From Deltaproteobacteria bacterium (lineage in GTDB: Bacteria; Desulfobacterota; GWC2-55-46; DRQE01): DNA of 64,000 nt. The DNA lies in the NCBI GenBank assembly GCA_029858205.1, contig JAOUFM010000006.1, forward strand, positions 6,094-70,093, written 5' to 3'. The notes beneath the pieces were generated by a model, which was given only the letters and a program-made list of their open reading frames with translations, was not told the DNA's origin and did not search any database. Of the stretch, positions 10,478 through 42,498 are shown piece after piece; positions within the stretch are counted from its first letter, which is position 1; every line of letters starts with the position of its first letter. The translations under genes were made by a program, and so were the position numbers.

Positions 10478-11838
10478 GGCACAATCCCCCTTTCATCCTT
10501 TGCTTCTACTGTAACGGCCGCTCCGCGTAGCGAATTCGCGTACGCCTTCTCTATTCTCACGCCGACCTCATCCCCTGCCGCTATCCCCTTTGCCTTCGGA
10601 AAGTTTACGGCCCTCGAGCACGGAGACCTTCCGGTTAAATCGTCTGCCGAGACCTTGCTTTCGCCCTCGACAAGAACTTTCACAGTTTTACCTTCGAGCG
10701 CCCTGCTCTTTTCAAACGATATGGCGCGCTGGAGCGTCTGTATCTCTTCGAGCCGTATTGCCTTCACGTCCTCGTCTACCTGGGCATCAAATGCAGCTGC
10801 CTCTGTGCCCGGGCGCGGCGAGTACTTGAAGGAAAATATATTGTCAAAGCGAACGTTCTTTAAGAGCCTTATCGTTGCCGCGTGGTCCTCATCAGTTTCT
10901 CCGGGGAATCCGGCTATTATGTCTGTTGTAAGCGCCATGTCCGGGTAAAGGGTCTTTAGCCTCTCGACCTTTGCCATGTAGGACTCGATTGTATACCCGC
11001 GCTTCATTGCCTTTAGCACGTTATTGGAGCCCGACTGCGCCGGAAGGTGCAGCGCCCTCTGGAGCTTTTCTTCTTTGCCAAAAAGCTCGATTAATTCATC
11101 CGACATGTCCTTGGGGTGCGATGTGACGAACCTTACGCGCTTTATGCCGTCGACATTCGCGACCATGCGTAGCAGCTCGGGAAAGCTCTTTTCCCCTGCG
11201 TAGGAGTTGACGTTTTGCCCGACAAGCGTTACCTCTCTTGTGCCCTTGTTGGAGAGTTGTTTGACCTCGTCGATTATCTCGCTAACGCTTCTGCTTGCCT
11301 CCCTGCCCCTTACATACGGCACGATGCAATAGGCGCAGAAGTTGTCGCACCCGCGCATGATGCTAACGAATGCCTTTACTCCCGCTTCTTCTGCAACCTC
11401 GTACTCGTCTCTGTCGATGCCTTCCTTAAAGTCCGTGTACGCTGCCCTTATGCCTGTTTCAGCGCCTTTTACTATGTCGCCTATCTTGTGGATGTTGTGC
11501 GTGCCAACGACCACATCCAGAAACGGCGCCCTCTTTAGAAGCTCCTCGCCAGATTGCTGCGCAACACAGCCGCTAACGCCGATAAGGAGCCCGGGCTTAT
11601 CCTTCTTCATGAGCTTATAGCGTCCAAGTGTCGAGTACACCTTGTGCTCGGCCTTGTCCCTTATGCTGCAGGTGTTTACGAGGATTAAATCAGCTTTCTC
11701 GGCGTCTTCGGTTGGAATGTAGTTATTCCTACGAAGCCGCTCGAGCATCCTTACCGAATCGTCCTCGTTCATCTGGCAGCCGAAGGTCTCTATGTAGACG
11801 CATTTGCTTGATTTTTCGGCTTTTTCGACAATGTCCAT
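10468..11838 (-). CDS. miaB: tRNA-2-methylthio-N6-dimethylallyladenosine synthase (radical SAM methylthiotransferase)
   Basis: N-terminal MTTase domain (YIETFGCQMNEDDS), radical SAM CxxxCxxC (MRGCDNFCAYC) and a C-terminal TRAM domain; 456 aa. Confidence 0.9.
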   Translation of the reverse strand: MDIVEKAEKSSKCVYIETFGCQMNEDDSVRMLERLRRNNYIPTEDAEKADLILVNTCSIRDKAEHKVYSTLGRYKLMKKDKPGLLIGVSGCVAQQSGEELLKRAPFLDVVVGTHNIHKIGDIVKGAETGIRAAYTDFKEGIDRDEYEVAEEAGVKAFVSIMRGCDNFCAYCIVPYVRGREASRSVSEIIDEVKQLSNKGTREVTLVGQNVNSYAGEKSFPELLRMVANVDGIKRVRFVTSHPKDMSDELIELFGKEEKLQRALHLPAQSGSNNVLKAMKRGYTIESYMAKVERLKTLYPDMALTTDIIAGFPGETDEDHAATIRLLKNVRFDNIFSFKYSPRPGTEAAAFDAQVDEDVKAIRLEEIQTLQRAISFEKSRALEGKTVKVLVEGESKVSADDLTGRSPCSRAVNFPKAKGIAAGDEVGVRIEKAYANSLRGAAVTVEAKDERGIVPCL

Positions 11839-11931: not shown

Positions 11932-13347
11932 TCAGTACACACCCATGGCATGGTAAGCGCGTTCTATTTTCTCTATGGCAATGTAATACGCCGCGGTTCT
12001 GTAGTCGGTTATGGCAGGGTTTTGCGCCATGACTTCGCGAATTTCCTGCCATGCTGTACGCATCGTATCGTCAAGGCCAGAGTACACGAGGTCAAGCTCG
12101 TCAGCTCCGCGAAGCAGTTCCTTATACGCCCATTCAGGGAGCTTCTTACCGGTGATTTCCTCGATTGCCTTTGTGATGTGCTGGCCCCTTAGCTCGTCGA
12201 AGCGCCTGCCCATCCTGCCAAACCGTATGTGCCCGATGTTCCTTACCCATTCAAAGTAGCTGACTGTAACGCCGCCGGAGTTAAGGAACGCGTCCGGGAT
12301 GACTGTGATGCCGCGCTTTCTAAGTATCTCGTCTGCCTCGAATGTGGTCGGGCCGTTTGCAGCCTCGGCAACTATCTTAGCGTTTATCCTTCCCGCGTTC
12401 TCTTCGGTGATTACGCCTTCCATCGCAGCTGGCATGAGTATGTCGCATTCAATCGTCATGGCCCCGGCCCTGTCCTCGCCAAATGAGCCGCCTGAGAAGC
12501 CTTTTACTCCGCCTGCCTTGATTATGTGCGCCCTCAGGTCGTCTATGTTGATGCCCTTGGGGTTGGTTATAACGCCATCACGCTCGATTACTGCGATGAC
12601 CTTGACCCCATCTTCCTCTGAAAGGAACTTTGCCGCGTGGTAGCCGACGTTGCCGAGCCCTTGCACGACCATGCGCTTATTGGAAAGGTCTCCGGAGAGG
12701 CCGCATTTCTCGACATCATCGATAAACCTAAAGAGCTCGCGAAGCGCGTACTGTATGCCCTTTCCCGTTGCCTCTGTCCTGCCCCTTACACCTCCAAGGT
12801 GCACTGGCTTTCCGGTAACGCACGCGATGTAGTTTATGTCCTCTGGATATAAATTCTTATAGGTGTCCATTATCCAGGCCATTTCCCTCGGGCCTGTGCC
12901 CATGTCCGGGGCCGGGACGTTTGTTGCGGGGCTTAAAAAGCCGCGGATTGCGAGCTCTCTTGCGTACGCGCGCGTGATTCGCTGAAGCTCGTCGCGTTCG
13001 TATTTTAGCGGGTCTACACAGAGCCCGCCCTTTGCGCCGCCAAAGGGCACGTCAACGATTGCGCACTTGTATGTCATTAAGGAAGCAAGCGCCTCGACCT
13101 CGTCCTGATTAACGTCGGATGAGTACCTGATGCCGCCCTTTACAGGGAGCATGTGGGAGCTATGTGTTGCGCGATATCCGGTGAACATCTCGGTCTTGCC
13201 TTTGATTTCCACCGGGAACTGGACTTTGATAACAGCGTTACACTGCTTAATAGCTGCCGCAAGGCCGGGGCTTAATTTTTTTACAATCATCGCCCTGTCG
13301 ACCATCAGGTCTACGTTCTCGCGAAAGCTTTTCTTTTTATTTGGCAT
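11932..13347 (-). CDS. gdhA: NAD(P)-dependent glutamate dehydrogenase
   Basis: GGAKGGLCVDP, the Glu/Leu/Phe/Val dehydrogenase active-site motif; 471 aa. Confidence 0.9.
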   Translation of the reverse strand: MPNKKKSFRENVDLMVDRAMIVKKLSPGLAAAIKQCNAVIKVQFPVEIKGKTEMFTGYRATHSSHMLPVKGGIRYSSDVNQDEVEALASLMTYKCAIVDVPFGGAKGGLCVDPLKYERDELQRITRAYARELAIRGFLSPATNVPAPDMGTGPREMAWIMDTYKNLYPEDINYIACVTGKPVHLGGVRGRTEATGKGIQYALRELFRFIDDVEKCGLSGDLSNKRMVVQGLGNVGYHAAKFLSEEDGVKVIAVIERDGVITNPKGINIDDLRAHIIKAGGVKGFSGGSFGEDRAGAMTIECDILMPAAMEGVITEENAGRINAKIVAEAANGPTTFEADEILRKRGITVIPDAFLNSGGVTVSYFEWVRNIGHIRFGRMGRRFDELRGQHITKAIEEITGKKLPEWAYKELLRGADELDLVYSGLDDTMRTAWQEIREVMAQNPAITDYRTAAYYIAIEKIERAYHAMGVY

Positions 13348-13359
13348 ATGGAAGTGTCC

Positions 13360-14050
13360 TTTTTAGTTTGCCCCTGCGGGGCGGCTTTGAAGTATTAGAC
13401 CTGCGAGTCAAAATGACAACTTCTTCGTCATTCCCGGCAGGCCGAGGGCCTGCACCCAAATGTAAAAACAATTCCTCCCACCACGTCATTCCCGCGCTCA
13501 TTTGGGCGGGAATCCAGCGTCTTACCTTATTTCCTCCCCTTTACAAGGGGCTGGGCTCCCGTTGCGCGAAGCCATTGCAACGGGAAGCGGAGGGGTAAAA
13601 TCTGTCTGTCATCCTGAACTTGATTCAGGATCCATTTTTAAAAAATCGAGATGCTGAAATGAATTCAGCATGACAAAAAGTTTCGTCATTCCCGCAGAAG
13701 CAGAAATCCATTTTTCTAAAAAAACTTTGCGCTGGCCGCGCGGCTTTGGCCGTAAGGTCTGCAAGGCTGCGACCCCGCCGCATAACCACCTCACGTATTG
13801 CCCCGCTTAAATCGCTTCGCTCATGCAACCCCGGCAATACGTCCGCCCCTTATGCGGCCCGCTTAAGCCTTGCCTGGCCTCACGGCCGGGGTTTGAAAAG
13901 AATCAAGCGCCGTAACCCCTCACCTTTATCCTCTCCCCAATGCGATTGGGGAGAGGAAATTCTTCTGCTGGTTCGGGTTTATAACCCGAACCGAAAAGTT
14001 TTGGTTCAAGTTGCAAACTTGAACCAGCGAAATAAAAGATGGGCAATGCC
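13360..14050. repeat. Mosaic block of short palindromic repeat modules (W-Y-Z-X), first copy
   Basis: Many perfect hairpins, including GCCCCTGCGGGGC, attcccgcgctcatttgggcgggaat, cctctccccaatgcgattggggagagg (12-bp stem) and ggttcgggtttataacccgaacc. Modules Y (~13640-13700), Z (~13768-13925) and X (~13960-14035) recur downstream at 14535-14890. Confidence 0.7.
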
Positions 14051-14092
14051 CGCCCTACGCCGAATAGATGGTGGGCCGTGCCACCCTACTAA

Positions 14093-14455
14093 CTACCCAT
14101 CTTTTACATTCTCAGCTTTCATTCTTTTAATTTTCTCGTCACGCCACGCCTCGTATTCTTCCCGTAATTTTGTCAAAACAACATAAGGGTCTTCGCTATA
14201 GTTTATACCTTTCACTATTGAACTTATACTAGCAGTAGTGCCAAAACCTTTTTCTGAAGCAATAAAGTAATTCCAGCCTAAATCAGTTCCAACCGATTCT
14301 ATATCATTTAAAACAAAAAAAATCAGGTCCAATGTTTGCCACATAGATTCAAGCACCTCAAGAGATCCGTACATTGATCCTCTTTTTTTAGATGCTTCCA
14401 TGATTCCATCTATAAGCCGTTTTATTTTAACTATTTTTTCTTCTGGCTCGCCCAC
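14093..14455 (-). CDS. Hypothetical protein, about 120 aa, in a low-GC island
   Basis: ORF with a GTG start 7 nt after AGAGGAG. GC is about 35% against about 60% flanking. It is bounded by the two repeat blocks. No recognisable motif. Confidence 0.4.
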   Translation of the reverse strand: MGEPEEKIVKIKRLIDGIMEASKKRGSMYGSLEVLESMWQTLDLIFFVLNDIESVGTDLGWNYFIASEKGFGTTASISSIVKGINYSEDPYVVLTKLREEYEAWRDEKIKRMKAENVKDG

Positions 14456-14529
14456 AAACAACTCCTCTAATAATTACCTTGTCCATTACAACACAGTCTT
14501 AACAACTGGGGTGGCACCACCTAAAACTT

Positions 14530-14900
14530 GGGTAGAAAACTTCTGCTGGTTCGGGTTTATAACCCGAACCGAAAAAGTTTTGGTTCAAGTTGCAAACTTG
14601 AACCAGCGAAAAATCGAGATGCTGAAATGAATTCAGCATGACAAAAAGTTTCGTCATTCCCGAGGTATTAATCGGGAATCCAGCGTCTTTGAAGCTTTAC
14701 CCCTGCGGGGCGGCTTTTGGGTATGAGGCCTGCAAGGCTGCGACCCCGCCGCACGGCCTCCTCGCATCAAACCCTGCCTTAAATCGCTGCGCTCATGCTC
14801 CCCCGGTTTGCCGCCCTCCTCCCGTGCGGCCCGCTTAAGCCTTGCATGGCCCCATACCCGGGGATTTGAAAAAATCAAGATGACATGCTTTATAAAACAC
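14530..14900. repeat. Mosaic block of short palindromic repeat modules (X-Y-W'-Z), second copy
   Basis: Modules X (14538-14608), Y (14609-14665) and Z (14728-14890) are 85-100% identical to the first copy but arranged in a different order. Confidence 0.7.
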
Positions 14901-14919
14901 TTTATGCGCCATGTCTTTT

Positions 14920-15567
14920 TTACCAAGCCTCGGCATCTTTCAGTCGCTCGACATCATAAGTTAATTGTTTAATCATTTGACGTACATACCAATAAAGACC
15001 TTCGACCTTTAGCAATATTGCATAGCCATGCGTTCTTCTGACTTTAATTATTGCGCCAGACATACCTTCAGGACGAATGTCAGTTTCCAATTGTTGGATA
15101 GCCAACTCGTCCATGCCTGGAGAGTCCCGATCAATTTTTAATGCAACAATTGCTCTATTACCAGGAAAAATTTCCTTTATTAAGTCAAAATCGAGCTTAG
15201 CCGCATTATGTATCAATGGATTCCTAAAAACGTGATAAATTATTCTTGCAGCATACTCTGGTGCTACTCCGCTTTCTTTGGGTCCCCCGTCCCAAGGAAA
15301 GTACTCTTTTACTACTTTTTTAAAGTTATCACTAGAATCCTGTTTTTGCTCTTGGTTATAAAAAACTACGGAACATCCTGCTATAACCGAAAAAAGAATT
15401 GTAGCAATTGAAAAATTTAATCCTGCTTTAATCCCATGCTCTGGCATTGGAAGTCGCAACATTGCATGTATATCTTTTAAAGAATTGTTCTCTATATTTC
15501 CCCTTATGAATTTTCTTAGTTTCTCTGAAATTTCAGGATTAATATTTAACTCCGAATAACTCACTTT
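14920..15567 (-). CDS. Hypothetical membrane-anchored protein, about 216 aa, in a low-GC island
   Basis: A GGAGG SD lies 3 nt before a GTG start (VSYSELNI...). There is one TM helix (LNFSIATILFSVIAGCSVVF). The sequence is AT-rich. No recognisable family. Confidence 0.4.
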   Translation of the reverse strand, partial: KVSYSELNINPEISEKLRKFIRGNIENNSLKDIHAMLRLPMPEHGIKAGLNFSIATILFSVIAGCSVVFYNQEQKQDSSDNFKKVVKEYFPWDGGPKESGVAPEYAARIIYHVFRNPLIHNAAKLDFDLIKEIFPGNRAIVALKIDRDSPGMDELAIQQLETDIRPEGMSGAIIKVRRTHGYAILLKVEGLYWYVRQMIKQLTYDVERLKDAEAW

Positions 15568-15728: not shown

Positions 15729-16808
15729 TCAAACCGCCTTCGCCGCCTTCCTCTCCTCAACAAGCGATAAAACTTCTCTTACCATCCTCTCAACAATTTC
15801 GTCTTCCTTTATTTTCGCAACCACCTCGCCGCTGCGGTAGATGAGCGCAACACCGTCGCCCCCTGCCATTGCAACGTCGGCTTCTTTTGCCTCTCCGGGG
15901 CCGTTCACAACGCACCCCATTACTGCTACTGTGACGGGCTCTTCAACGTGCGAAAGGCGTTTTTCGATTTCAAGCGCGATTTTTTCAGAGTTAAGCCTTA
16001 TGCGGCCGCATGTGGGGCAGGAAATGATGTTTATGCCGCGCTTTCTGATTTCAAGGGCCTTTAGTATCTCCCACGCAACGCGCACCTCTTCGACCGGGTC
16101 TGCTGTAAGAGAGACCCGAAGTGTAGAGCCGATGCCCATATGTAAGAGCACTCCGATGCCGACCGAGGACTTGATTGTGCCGGAGAAAAGTGTTCCTGCC
16201 TCGGTGATGCCAAGGTGGAGAGGATAGTCCGATACCTTTGAGAACGCCTCGTACGCTGCTATTGTCGAGTTCACGTTTGAGGACTTAAGGGAGACTTTTA
16301 TATCGTGGAAGCCTTCATCTTCGAGAAGCTTTATATGGCGTAGCGCGCTCTCGACCATTGCCTCGGGTGTCGGGTGGCCGTACTTTTGGAGAATGTCCTT
16401 TTCTAAAGACCCTGAGTTAACGCCTATGCGTATGGGCGCTTTTCTGCTGTTTGCCGCGCGCGCGACCTCTCTAACCCTGTCCTTGCCGCCGATGTTACCG
16501 GGGTTAAGCCTTAGTCCGTCTGCGCCTGAATCTAGAGAAAGAAGCGCGAGTTTGTGGTCAAAATGAATGTCCGCGATGAGCGGTATGGAGATGTTCTTCT
16601 TTATTTCCTTTATCGCCTTTGCTGCTACCTCATCTGGCACTGCCACGCGCACTATTTCGCACCCTGCCTTTTCGAGCTTTAGGATTTGCTCGATAGTTGC
16701 GGCAGTGTTCGAGGTATCGGTGTTTGTCATGGACTGCACGCGCACGGGAGCGCCTCCGCCAACAGTAACCCCGCCTATGGAAATTTGTCTTGTTTTCCTC
16801 TTTGCCAT
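15729..16808 (-). CDS. ispG: 4-hydroxy-3-methylbut-2-en-1-yl diphosphate synthase (IspG/GcpE)
   Basis: Full-length GcpE: RQISIGGVTVGG...RVQSMTNT...IADIHFD, and a C-terminal CxxC...C cluster (ISCPTCGR). Confidence 0.95.
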   Translation of the reverse strand: MAKRKTRQISIGGVTVGGGAPVRVQSMTNTDTSNTAATIEQILKLEKAGCEIVRVAVPDEVAAKAIKEIKKNISIPLIADIHFDHKLALLSLDSGADGLRLNPGNIGGKDRVREVARAANSRKAPIRIGVNSGSLEKDILQKYGHPTPEAMVESALRHIKLLEDEGFHDIKVSLKSSNVNSTIAAYEAFSKVSDYPLHLGITEAGTLFSGTIKSSVGIGVLLHMGIGSTLRVSLTADPVEEVRVAWEILKALEIRKRGINIISCPTCGRIRLNSEKIALEIEKRLSHVEEPVTVAVMGCVVNGPGEAKEADVAMAGGDGVALIYRSGEVVAKIKEDEIVERMVREVLSLVEERKAAKAV

Positions 16809-22673: not shown

Positions 22674-22747
22674 TGGAGCGGGCGAAGGGAATCGAACCCT
22701 CGTATGAAGCTTGGGAAGCTTCCATTCTACCATTGAATTACGCCCGC
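22674..22747 (-). tRNA. tRNA-Gly (anticodon CCC), CCA encoded
   Basis: The minus-strand sequence GCGGGCGTAATTCAATGGTAGAATGGAAGCTTCCCAAGCTTCATACGAGGGTTCGATTCCCTTCGCCCGCTCCA has a 7-bp acceptor stem, an anticodon loop uuCCCaa, a T-arm GGTTCGATTCC, and is 74 nt long. Confidence 0.85.
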
Positions 22748-41358: not shown

Positions 41359-42498
41359 TTATAGCATATCCTGCATGTCATTTCCCGTAAAACCGGAAAG
41401 CCTCTGCTTCTTGTCAAACCCCTTGGCCTGGGCCAGTACCATCATCGTGTCGCTTATGCCGCCCGGCATGACGAGGTTCTTGACACTCTGATTCGTAAGC
41501 ACAGTGTCGGCGCTTACCTGCCCCTTTTCCGGCATCTCCGTTAGTTCATCGAGTATGCCAAGAGATAAAAGAAACTGCCTCTGGGTCGTAAACCCGGCTA
41601 CAGTGAGCCCGGCCGCGCTTCCCGCGTTTTTAAGGGCCGTGAAATCCACGTGCGCGGTTATGTCCTGCTCGCCGATGCGTTCATACGGCATGTTATTTAC
41701 CGTGTGCTTATAATGGCAGTGAAGTGTAGAGCCCCTGCCGGACGCATACAGCTTCGAAGCCGCTGCTCCGTAGTCTATCGTAACAACAAAGCCCTGGTCA
41801 AATGTTTTCGCGGCATTTCCCAGCCAAACAGAACAAAACGGCGACACCTCGAATCCAGAGCCCACAGGCAACCCCTTTGTAACCTCCATAAAACAGCGCC
41901 CGAGTTCCTCAAACGAAGGCTCCAGGATAACATCTCCAAAAGAACCGCTTGCCTTATCGAGCCCGACAAAAATCTCCTTTGGGCCCTCAGGCGTTACCAC
42001 CCCCCTATGAAACGGCAGCGCGTCGAATAGTTCGTTAGAGTAAACGCAGGCATTCATGAAATGCCCTGCTTTCGTAATATCCGAAACCCAAACGGCCTTA
42101 CTTCCGTGCGCCTGGTTTTCAACGTGCAGGGCCGCGTTTCTCTCGACCAAAACGGCGGTAGATGCCTCGTAAAGGGCCCCGTAGCGCTCCTTCATCACAT
42201 CGAGCACGCTAAACGTCAGCAGCCCCCTGCCTGCGCCGCCTTCTATAAGCGCAAAGTCCGAAGGGCTATTACAACGCTGCCAGCACTCGTAAATCTGGCG
42301 GCAAAGCGCGGCTGCGAAGATCCTTACCCCTGAGTCCAGGGAGGTAAAATAATCGCCTTTTTCGCCCCAGGGCGCGCCGGCCCTGTTGCCCAGGCGCATG
42401 TAATACCCGCCTTCTGCGTAAAGCGCGACATCCATAAACTCGGCAAACGGCATGGGGCCGCGCTTACGGATACGCCTCTTTATCTCTTCTACGACCAT
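41359..42498 (-). CDS. Class I SAM-dependent methyltransferase, MidA/NDUFAF7 (DUF185) family
   Basis: Family-typical N-terminus (PFAEFMDVALY...GYY) and a central methyltransferase fold; 379 aa. Confidence 0.7.
   Translation of the reverse strand: MVVEEIKRRIRKRGPMPFAEFMDVALYAEGGYYMRLGNRAGAPWGEKGDYFTSLDSGVRIFAAALCRQIYECWQRCNSPSDFALIEGGAGRGLLTFSVLDVMKERYGALYEASTAVLVERNAALHVENQAHGSKAVWVSDITKAGHFMNACVYSNELFDALPFHRGVVTPEGPKEIFVGLDKASGSFGDVILEPSFEELGRCFMEVTKGLPVGSGFEVSPFCSVWLGNAAKTFDQGFVVTIDYGAAASKLYASGRGSTLHCHYKHTVNNMPYERIGEQDITAHVDFTALKNAGSAAGLTVAGFTTQRQFLLSLGILDELTEMPEKGQVSADTVLTNQSVKNLVMPGGISDTMMVLAQAKGFDKKQRLSGFTGNDMQDML

Follow-up and report, generated by a model that had tools for sequence, protein, structure and literature searches.

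A mosaic of intergenic hairpin repeats forms spacer DNA around two low-GC conflict-system genes in a deltaproteobacterial genome

Between the housekeeping genes ispG and gdh of an uncultured deltaproteobacterium, palindromic modules recur in two blocks, in a different order in each, around two genes of low GC content; what kind of element is this, and what might its hairpins do? The window, by which we mean the whole 64,000-nucleotide stretch of DNA analyzed here, is part of contig k141_805357 (491 kb) of ENA ERZ27296335, and the NCBI name of its proteins, 'MAG: Deltaproteobacteria bacterium', marks it as part of a metagenome-assembled genome (MAG). On the minus strand the gene order is ispG (15729-16808), ORF214 (14920-15564), block 2, ORF122 (14093-14461), block 1 and gdh (11932-13347). 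A first-pass annotation had described four modules, W, X, Y and Z, and proposed a structured RNA or a mobile structured element flanking two orphan genes. We find that the repeat mosaic is spacer DNA around two horizontally acquired low-GC conflict-system genes between ispG and gdh, and that spacers of this family also lie between the orphan toxin-tip/immunity cassettes of an Rhs array at another locus of the MAG. The locus looks most like an intergenic mosaic of the NIME (neisserial intergenic mosaic element) or BIME type, and not like a stand-alone RNA gene.

All four modules were recovered in two differently ordered blocks, at coordinates identical to, or within a few bases of, those first annotated. 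The two Y copies (13641-13694 and 14609-14662, both on the minus strand) are identical at 54/54 positions (E 4e-25), and the two X copies (13962-14032 and 14540-14611, assigned to neither strand) are 98.6% identical (E 5e-31), so that a 72-nt module flanks ORF122 as a direct repeat. Z occupies 13745-13890 (minus; 164.9 bits) and 14716-14862 (minus; 164.1 bits). The W hairpin at 13367-13389 resembles the W copy of block 2 at 14696-14718 (minus; repeat families D4 and D7), and a third W-type copy (family D4) lies at 13726-13748 (minus). That nearly every module is a hairpin was confirmed. X consists of two perfect hairpins; in Y, the terminator-like hairpin ATGCTGAAT...ATTCAGCAT has a T-run after it on the sense strand and stands head-to-head with a CGTCATTCCCG half-site; and the 12-bp stem noted at first is a perfect 12/13-bp hairpin, TCCTCTCCCCAAT/ATTGGGGAGAGGA (arms 13929-13941/13945-13957), which follows a conserved linker, CCGTAACCCCTCACCTTTAT, in an unoriented segment at 13906-13957. 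The two intergenic blocks fold at z = -6.1 and -6.7 relative to dinucleotide shuffles. A scan for terminators (GC-rich stem-loop plus U-run on the sense strand) picked out the hairpins of Y and X, the 13-bp hairpin and a single one beyond ORF122; Z was not among them. An assembly artefact was ruled out, since an independent assembly is identical and reproduces Z copy 2. The modules are confined to 1.5 kb, with no further copies in the 64-kb window or in the 9 kb beyond its end, where housekeeping genes lie.

The segment at 13367-13407 (minus), placed 20 nt upstream of the gdh start codon, joins the W hairpin (GCCCC-GCA-GGGGC on the sense strand) to the 3' remnant of a truncated Z and is 83% identical to 14696-14736 (family D7). 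The sole sigma-70-like match on the sense strand, TTGTCA-17-AATACT (9/12; 13391-13419, minus), falls in this Z remnant just upstream of gdh and would put the W hairpin into the gdh 5' leader; promoter-like matches in the region are no commoner than chance.

A second locus shows the setting of the spacers. A gapped pattern built from the conserved Z stem and used for DNA-level searches matched one JGI metagenome contig, from the same organism, which carries a third copy of Z. That locus (L002, L003 and L009) is an Rhs polymorphic-toxin array, in which a 1934-aa Rhs protein and an immunity gene are followed by four orphan cassettes, each made up of the 3' part of an Rhs core, a C-terminal tip and, in the immunity position, a small gene. 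Because the array proteins (MDH4227143/147) and the window proteins (MDH4227337-341) belong to one NCBI accession series, and the two loci share three samples, both are assigned to the same genome bin. After one of the array immunity genes, a spacer of 685 nt is colinear with block 1 of the window: the colinear stretch extends from the 13-bp hairpin over Z, W, the Y hairpin and a hairpin of the Neisseria Transformation Sequence (NTS) type as far as GGGTGCAGGCCCTCGGCC. This junction motif lies at 13440-13460 (minus) in the window, and in the array (L003 5382-5408) it directly adjoins the following orphan Rhs fragment on the 5' side. Two small hairpins, CCCCTTTACAAGGGG and CCCGTTGC-GCGAAGCCATT-GCAACGGG (13536-13584, unoriented), are also common to the array spacer, and the linker with its 13-bp hairpin has three further copies in the array (L003 4943-4978, 7627-7659 and 10311-10366). 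From one paralogous spacer Z is missing precisely, and each junction bears the tetranucleotide GCCG. All the data searched hold three copies of Z and one remnant, the 5'-truncated one in the window. The count of copies by sequence search that had first been suggested therefore added the third Z of the same MAG and none elsewhere: the Z-stem pattern had 0 matches in GTDB species representatives and 0 in IMG/VR, an exact 52-nt Y pattern had 0 matches in GTDB species representatives, and Z and the 13-bp hairpin had no blastn match among PLSDB plasmids and INPHARED phages. A six-frame Z 'pseudo-protein', compared with 5.8 billion protein clusters for spurious open reading frame (ORF) calls over other copies, also found nothing.

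Two other features of the array locus were observed. The array (L003 1-14723 / L009 1-17363) is followed directly, in the ENA contig, by a two-partner-secretion pair in which a ShlB/TpsB gene accompanies one for a TpsA exceeding 3139 aa. Towards the array end, a direct repeat of ~120 nt containing the DnaA-box-like TTATCCACA (L003 10377-10498 and 10731-10842) brackets a fragment resembling a tRNA 3' end, GGTTCGAATCCCCGTGGGGACGCCA (~10535-10565), at which neither ARAGORN nor Rfam called a tRNA; the repeat pair may be the scar of an integrated element.

The two genes surrounded by the mosaic are consistent with this setting. They are flanked by the blocks and low in GC (35.8% for ORF122 and 36.6% for ORF214 vs 51.9% for the window), as had been reported; their description as orphans does not hold, since both have homologues. 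ORF122 (minus strand; probable GTG start at 14455) has only three relatives in the 5.8 billion protein clusters, one being its own shorter gene call, and the other two (64-67% aa identity) are immunity-position genes of the Rhs array in the same MAG. Each of these homologues comes directly after a toxin C-terminal domain, itself preceded by the Rhs core motif PxxxxDPxGL, one (P0002) after the 1934-aa Rhs protein and the other (P0003) after an orphan Rhs tip with PVNYTDPWGE, and TIGR03696 (Rhs_assc_core) matches the upstream protein. ORF122 is a homologue of Rhs-type immunity genes. ORF214 (minus strand) was listed as a 241-aa ORF; its real start is an internal GTG 27 codons in, which gives a product of 214 aa. 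It belongs to an uncharacterized family of ~210 aa (425 representatives at E ≤ 1e-3) whose invariant residues form RNPLxH, an Rx4H HEPN-type motif, and its AlphaFold model is confident (pLDDT 88.8). The family has weak similarity to the HEPN fold, and we call ORF214 HEPN-like. Neither gene has a match in Pfam, NCBIfam or PADLOC, or a sequence match in the PDB, and Foldseek with the ORF214 model gave no PDB match. From these identities it follows that the islet is a small insertion of conflict genes between two housekeeping genes.

To place the mosaic among known repeats, we compared it with the arrays of Neisseria. In that genus, 20-bp dRS3 inverted repeats flank RS modules of 50-150 bp to make up NIME arrays (PMC1797815). 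Variable genes and silent mafB/fhaB toxin cassettes adjoin these arrays, for which a part in promoting recombination has been proposed (PMC1797815). Hairpins of the NTS or Ssn-related motif (SRM) type occur across phyla and, in Neisseria, are cut as single-stranded DNA (ssDNA) by the small GIY-YIG nuclease SsnA (PMC11893778). The window has two dRS3/NTS-like hairpins on the plus strand, CGTCATTCCCGCG...CGGGAATCCAG at 13484-13517 and CGTCATTCCCG-AGGTATTAAT-CGGGAATCCAG at 14652-14683, whose cores are ATTCCC-N14-GGGAAT (13488-13513) and ATTCCC-N12-GGGAAT (14656-14679), with 0.09 expected by chance; a GTCAT-type hairpin, GTCATCCTGAAC-TTG-ATTCAGGATCC, lies at 13607-13631 (plus). Four CGTCATTCCCG heads are found on the plus strand vs 1.4 matches expected in the window with one mismatch allowed. 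The array spacer goes further: its TGTCATTCCCGCGAAGGCGGGAATCCAG is an exact dRS3, ATTCCC-N8-GGGAAT (L003 5319-5338, also L002 512-531), and matches the NTS consensus, CGTCATTCCCGCGMAVGCGGGAATCYRG, at 27/28 positions. The published SRM pattern, HGTCWYN(0-2)YYVSBRHN(0-5)WNVSBRGN(0-2)RNCYNB (PMC11893778), fits the first window hairpin (13484-13517) and the array hairpin (L003 5315-5342), with one further and probably chance match at 41376 (shuffle mean 0.48).

The likeness to NIME arrays extends to the building plan. Short GC-rich hairpins of the form (C)GTCATTCCCG...CGGGAATCCAG are interleaved with modules of 50-150 nt in variable order; Z, X and Y lie between or beside GTCAT hairpins, next to orphan Rhs cassettes and an immunity homologue; and the neighbors of both systems are genes that vary or were acquired horizontally, together with silent cassettes for toxin C-termini (mafB and fhaB in Neisseria, Rhs here). 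There are also differences. Neisseria holds hundreds of repeats genome-wide, whereas here they occupy a single locus in ~73 kb of contig; and the two window hairpins have centres of 12 and 14 nt instead of N8. A crude GIY-YIG motif scan (ssnA, cd10448) of six frames of the window, L001, L003 and L009 (~100 kb of the genome) found no ssnA-like gene. Because the host is a deltaproteobacterial MAG and no copies lie outside 1.5 kb of the ~73 kb, we regard the window mosaic as an analogue, and not a member, of the Neisseria family.

The first-pass annotation had argued from the two window copies of Z that pairing is preserved while sequence changes, and its description was accurate. One stem reads GCCGCATAA/TTATGCGGC in one copy and GCCGCACGG/CCGTGCGGC in the other, a second reads ACGTATTGCC/GGCAATACGT vs CAAACC/GGTTTG, and the GCAAGGC stem and ~25-nt apical loop are conserved. 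The outermost stem, which had been passed over, covaries too (GGCCGTAAGG/CCTCACGGCC vs GGGTATGAGGCC/GGCCCCATACCC). Z is a module of 147 nt, and the gene-sense strand of all three copies, each of which has the same polarity relative to its upstream ORF, folds into the same rod of ~50 bp (z = -3.8 to -5.0 for each copy). From the base upward, the rod comprises a variable P1 of 12 bp; P2, GCAAGGCT/AGCCTTGC, followed by a TAA bulge; P3-P4, GCGG GCCGC.../...GCGGC, a GGGG bulge and then TCGC, with the distal 3-4 bp varying; an internal loop of 7x7 nt, both strands of which are rich in purines (GRGGNGG); a variable P5 of 6-10 bp; and an apical region of ~30 nt with the conserved GCATGAGCG(A/C)AGCGATTTAAG. 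RNAalifold on the three copies gave 51 pairs, 13 of them changed on both sides and still paired; an explicit count likewise gave 13 double changes, with 95.4% of cells paired. Shuffles yielded 5.1 ± 1.7 such double changes and reached 13 in 0/500 cases, and slid controls gave 0-4. The case for covariation was thus strengthened by the third copy.

Several features point to more than palindromy. The TAA bulge, the GGGG bulge and the non-complementary, purine-rich 7x7 internal loops are kept in all three copies while the flanking stems have changed. Wobble pairs are one-sided, with 11 G.U cells at 8 pair positions on the sense strand vs 1 on the other strand, and single G-C to A-U exchanges with a G.U intermediate occur at columns 39/111 and 41/109. 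The sense strand is also the more stable of the two, by 6-11 kcal/mol with RNA parameters and by 7-10 kcal/mol with DNA parameters. The retained bulges and loops, the asymmetry of the strands and these exchanges together indicate that a particular single-strand fold is maintained, and selection on the single-strand fold of Z is supported. The part of the original claim that named the molecule as RNA does not follow, because the wobble asymmetry fits ssDNA equally well and Rfam has no match. We therefore regard Z as a clean small example of a repeat that maintains a single-strand fold rather than a sequence; as it rests on three copies in a single genome, it counts as a lead, short of a new class.

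How are these observations best explained? As a whole, we favor a hairpin mosaic that serves as cassette spacer, its shared modules acting as portable homology by which cassettes would be duplicated, moved and reshuffled, as has been proposed for neisserial intergenic mosaic elements. This role is suggested by the X-ORF122-X repeats, the permuted module order, a colinear stretch that reaches the Rhs junction, and the exact gain or loss of Z between paralogous spacers, and we judge the whole explanation to have about an even chance of being right. For Z itself we lean slightly, and tentatively, towards a cis-acting RNA hairpin 3' of cassette genes, which might be an RNase III-type processing site or a stabilizing element. 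This leaning is modelled on what is known for REP, ERIC and Correia repeats (CREE). Hairpins of BIME/REP and BOX elements can stabilize upstream mRNA. Like our mosaic, BIME/REP of enterobacteria and BOX of pneumococcus arrange a few palindromic and non-palindromic modules in different orders within co-transcribed intergenic regions; they differ in that there is no sequence similarity, no GTAG-type REP head and no RAYT gene seen here, and the copy number here is tiny. ERIC and CREE are imperfect palindromes of ~100-150 nt found in transcribed intergenic regions and, like Z, show presence/absence polymorphism at paralogous or orthologous sites; as long RNA hairpins they are processed by RNase E or RNase III, altering the stability of flanking mRNA. 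Whereas ERIC and CREE end in conserved inverted repeats, have TA target duplications and occur in tens to hundreds of copies, Z has variable termini, no clear duplication and three copies.

A number of points weigh against these preferences. Full copies of Z number only three, in one genome bin, and are paralogues that have possibly exchanged segments. A G-rich strand folds better even when shuffled, so part of the energy difference between the strands is compositional. Since G.T is also the most tolerated DNA mismatch, and the sense strand is the G-rich one, which would be the lagging-strand template, the wobble asymmetry fits RNA and ssDNA alike. Neither a U-tract nor a predicted promoter accompanies Z that would delimit a transcript. 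Finally, no recombinase, transposase or Ssn-type GIY-YIG gene was seen within ~10 kb of the islet, so that recombination, if the modules take part in it, would depend on the general homologous pathway or on a factor whose gene lies elsewhere.

The strongest alternative, which we consider somewhat less probable than the RNA hairpin and on balance doubtful, is that Z acts as ssDNA: a strand-specific hairpin for a recombinase, transposase or nuclease, serving as a cassette recombination site or as a non-autonomous mobile hairpin of an attC-, REPIN- or NTS-like kind, with the neighboring GTCAT hairpins as targets of an Ssn-type ssDNA nuclease or an IS110-type recombinase. The folding sense strand of Z is the G-rich strand, presumably the lagging-strand template, and it is the more stable strand with DNA parameters as well. 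Direct repeats of 72 nt around ORF122 are what the integration of a circular cassette in the Campbell manner should leave. attC sites, too, rely on conserved extrahelical bulges and on a fold specific to one strand, and the apical loop of Z contains GCGAAGC/GCGCAGC, which would be an unusually stable DNA mini-hairpin. The exact absence of Z from one spacer and its 5'-truncated remnant also speak for movement, and to that extent the original suggestion of a mobile structured element survives; three copies in one genome, unconserved ends and the lack of a clear target duplication limit it to partial support. Z moreover sits among dRS3/NTS-type hairpins, which in Neisseria act as ssDNA and as recombinase targets (PMC11893778, PMC1797815).

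Several of these likenesses weaken on closer comparison. Like Z, attC sites (57-141 nt) are cassette-associated, imperfect hairpins folded on one strand, with conserved extrahelical bases and inner stems conserved in structure and not in sequence. The base stem P1 of Z, however, is its least conserved part, whereas the R-boxes of attC and the ends of miniature inverted-repeat transposable elements (MITEs) and REPINs are the most conserved parts of theirs. The hairpin bases of Z, CCCCGGCCGTGAGG.../...CCTTACGGCCAAAG and CCCCGGGTATGGGG.../...CCTCATACCCAAAAG, hold no AAC/GTT core pair on either strand, no RYYYAAC/GTTRRRY (R''/R') boxes were found in Z, and the cassettes here carry terminator-like hairpins of their own. 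The called genes, up to ~10 kb to each side and across the array locus, include no integrase, transposase or GIY-YIG gene and no recombinase domain, and neither an integron integrase (IntI) nor an array of attC-bounded cassettes adjoins Z. Z was therefore rejected as an attC site, for want of R boxes, a constant base stem and an integrase. It was likewise rejected as a MITE or REPIN, its terminal stem being among the most variable parts, with no consistent target duplication and only three copies and a remnant; nor, as said, did species representatives, viruses, plasmids or phages hold any.

A bolder form of this idea, which we rate as improbable, makes Z the recognition site of an unrecognized exchange system for toxin/immunity and defence cassettes, analogous to attC and unrelated to it in sequence. 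The invariant core and the apical loop would serve as the binding site for a recombinase or nuclease whose gene lies elsewhere in the genome, and the variable stems would tolerate drift; if so, immunity and HEPN cassettes would hop between the Rhs array and housekeeping sites such as ispG-gdh. A published precedent for the locus as a whole is the rAID-1 clusters of Bacteroidales, where orphan immunity genes of skewed GC alternate with repetitive intergenic DNA 'reminiscent of integrons' (bioRxiv 10.1101/471110). Our locus shares the orphan immunity gene, the skewed GC and the repetitive intergenic DNA. It differs in phylum and in its repeats, and where a rAID-1 cluster can comprise as many as 31 genes with a conserved XerD-family recombinase at the head, it has two genes and no XerD-family tyrosine recombinase within ~10 kb, and the identification was rejected.

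An equally poor prospect is that Z is a purely neutral quasi-palindrome. Template switching can create and maintain perfect hairpins and produce multi-base compensated changes in a single event (bioRxiv 10.1101/2021.04.15.439925, PMC8794818), and the copies of Z do differ by block replacements with length changes on both arms (P5 of 10 bp vs 6-7 bp, and an indel of 2 nt per arm in P1), which would be rare from independent point mutations. Copying from arm to arm should, however, erase imperfections, yet the bulges and the 7x7 loops persist in three copies. It would also leave the one-sidedness of the non-Watson-Crick oppositions and the single-pair exchanges through G.U unexplained, and segments of 24/24 and 26/27 identity directly beside almost fully replaced ones are not what neutral divergence gives.

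That Z is a stand-alone small RNA or a riboswitch is very unlikely. Its conserved loops and covarying stems, and the position of the two window copies upstream of ORF122 and gdh in the sense direction, would suit such an RNA. No promoter-like or terminator-like signal brackets it, however; the ~50-bp rod lacks the multi-helix junction of ligand-binding riboswitches; the third copy precedes a 5'-truncated Rhs fragment and not an intact gene; and Z is absent from all other genomes searched. A match to a known Rfam family had been named as an outcome that would overturn the proposal, and none appeared: at the gathering threshold the window gave only a tRNA at 22677-22747, at E up to 10 the region 13300-15000 gave chance-level matches, none on Z, and the Rhs-array locus gave none. 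Other identities were set aside more quickly, a CsrA sponge because GGA motifs are not conserved in all copies of Z, a 6S- or SRP-like rod for lack of any Rfam signal, and an intrinsic terminator on the result of the scan described above.

Neither intergenic mosaics of hairpin repeats (BIME, NIME, BOX) nor SRM hairpins are new as such. What is new is such a mosaic with Rhs cassettes and an islet of orphan-immunity and HEPN-like genes in a deltaproteobacterial MAG, and the Z module, which has no relative in any collection searched. Orphan toxin-tip/immunity cassettes accumulate beside Rhs, contact-dependent inhibition (CDI) and Maf loci, and both their movement and the expression of silent cassettes are poorly understood outside Neisseria. 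Here, in an uncultured lineage unrelated to Neisseria, Rhs cassettes are accompanied by a NIME-like mosaic with genuine hairpins of the dRS3/NTS type, and with spacers of this family an immunity homologue and a HEPN-like gene have been brought between two housekeeping genes. A partner protein of Z or a role in mRNA processing, if found, would link the repeat architecture to the mobility or expression of cassettes.

Some minor features of the window complete the description. The hairpin flagged by the terminator scan downstream of ORF122 lies at 14041-14055 (minus). The tRNA gene at 22677-22747 (minus; 68.3 bits) is ~6 kb from the islet and does not adjoin it. Over positions 1-64000 the cumulative GC skew drops steadily from 0 to -4.83, so that the plus strand is C-rich throughout, and most of the genes in the window lie on the G-rich strand.

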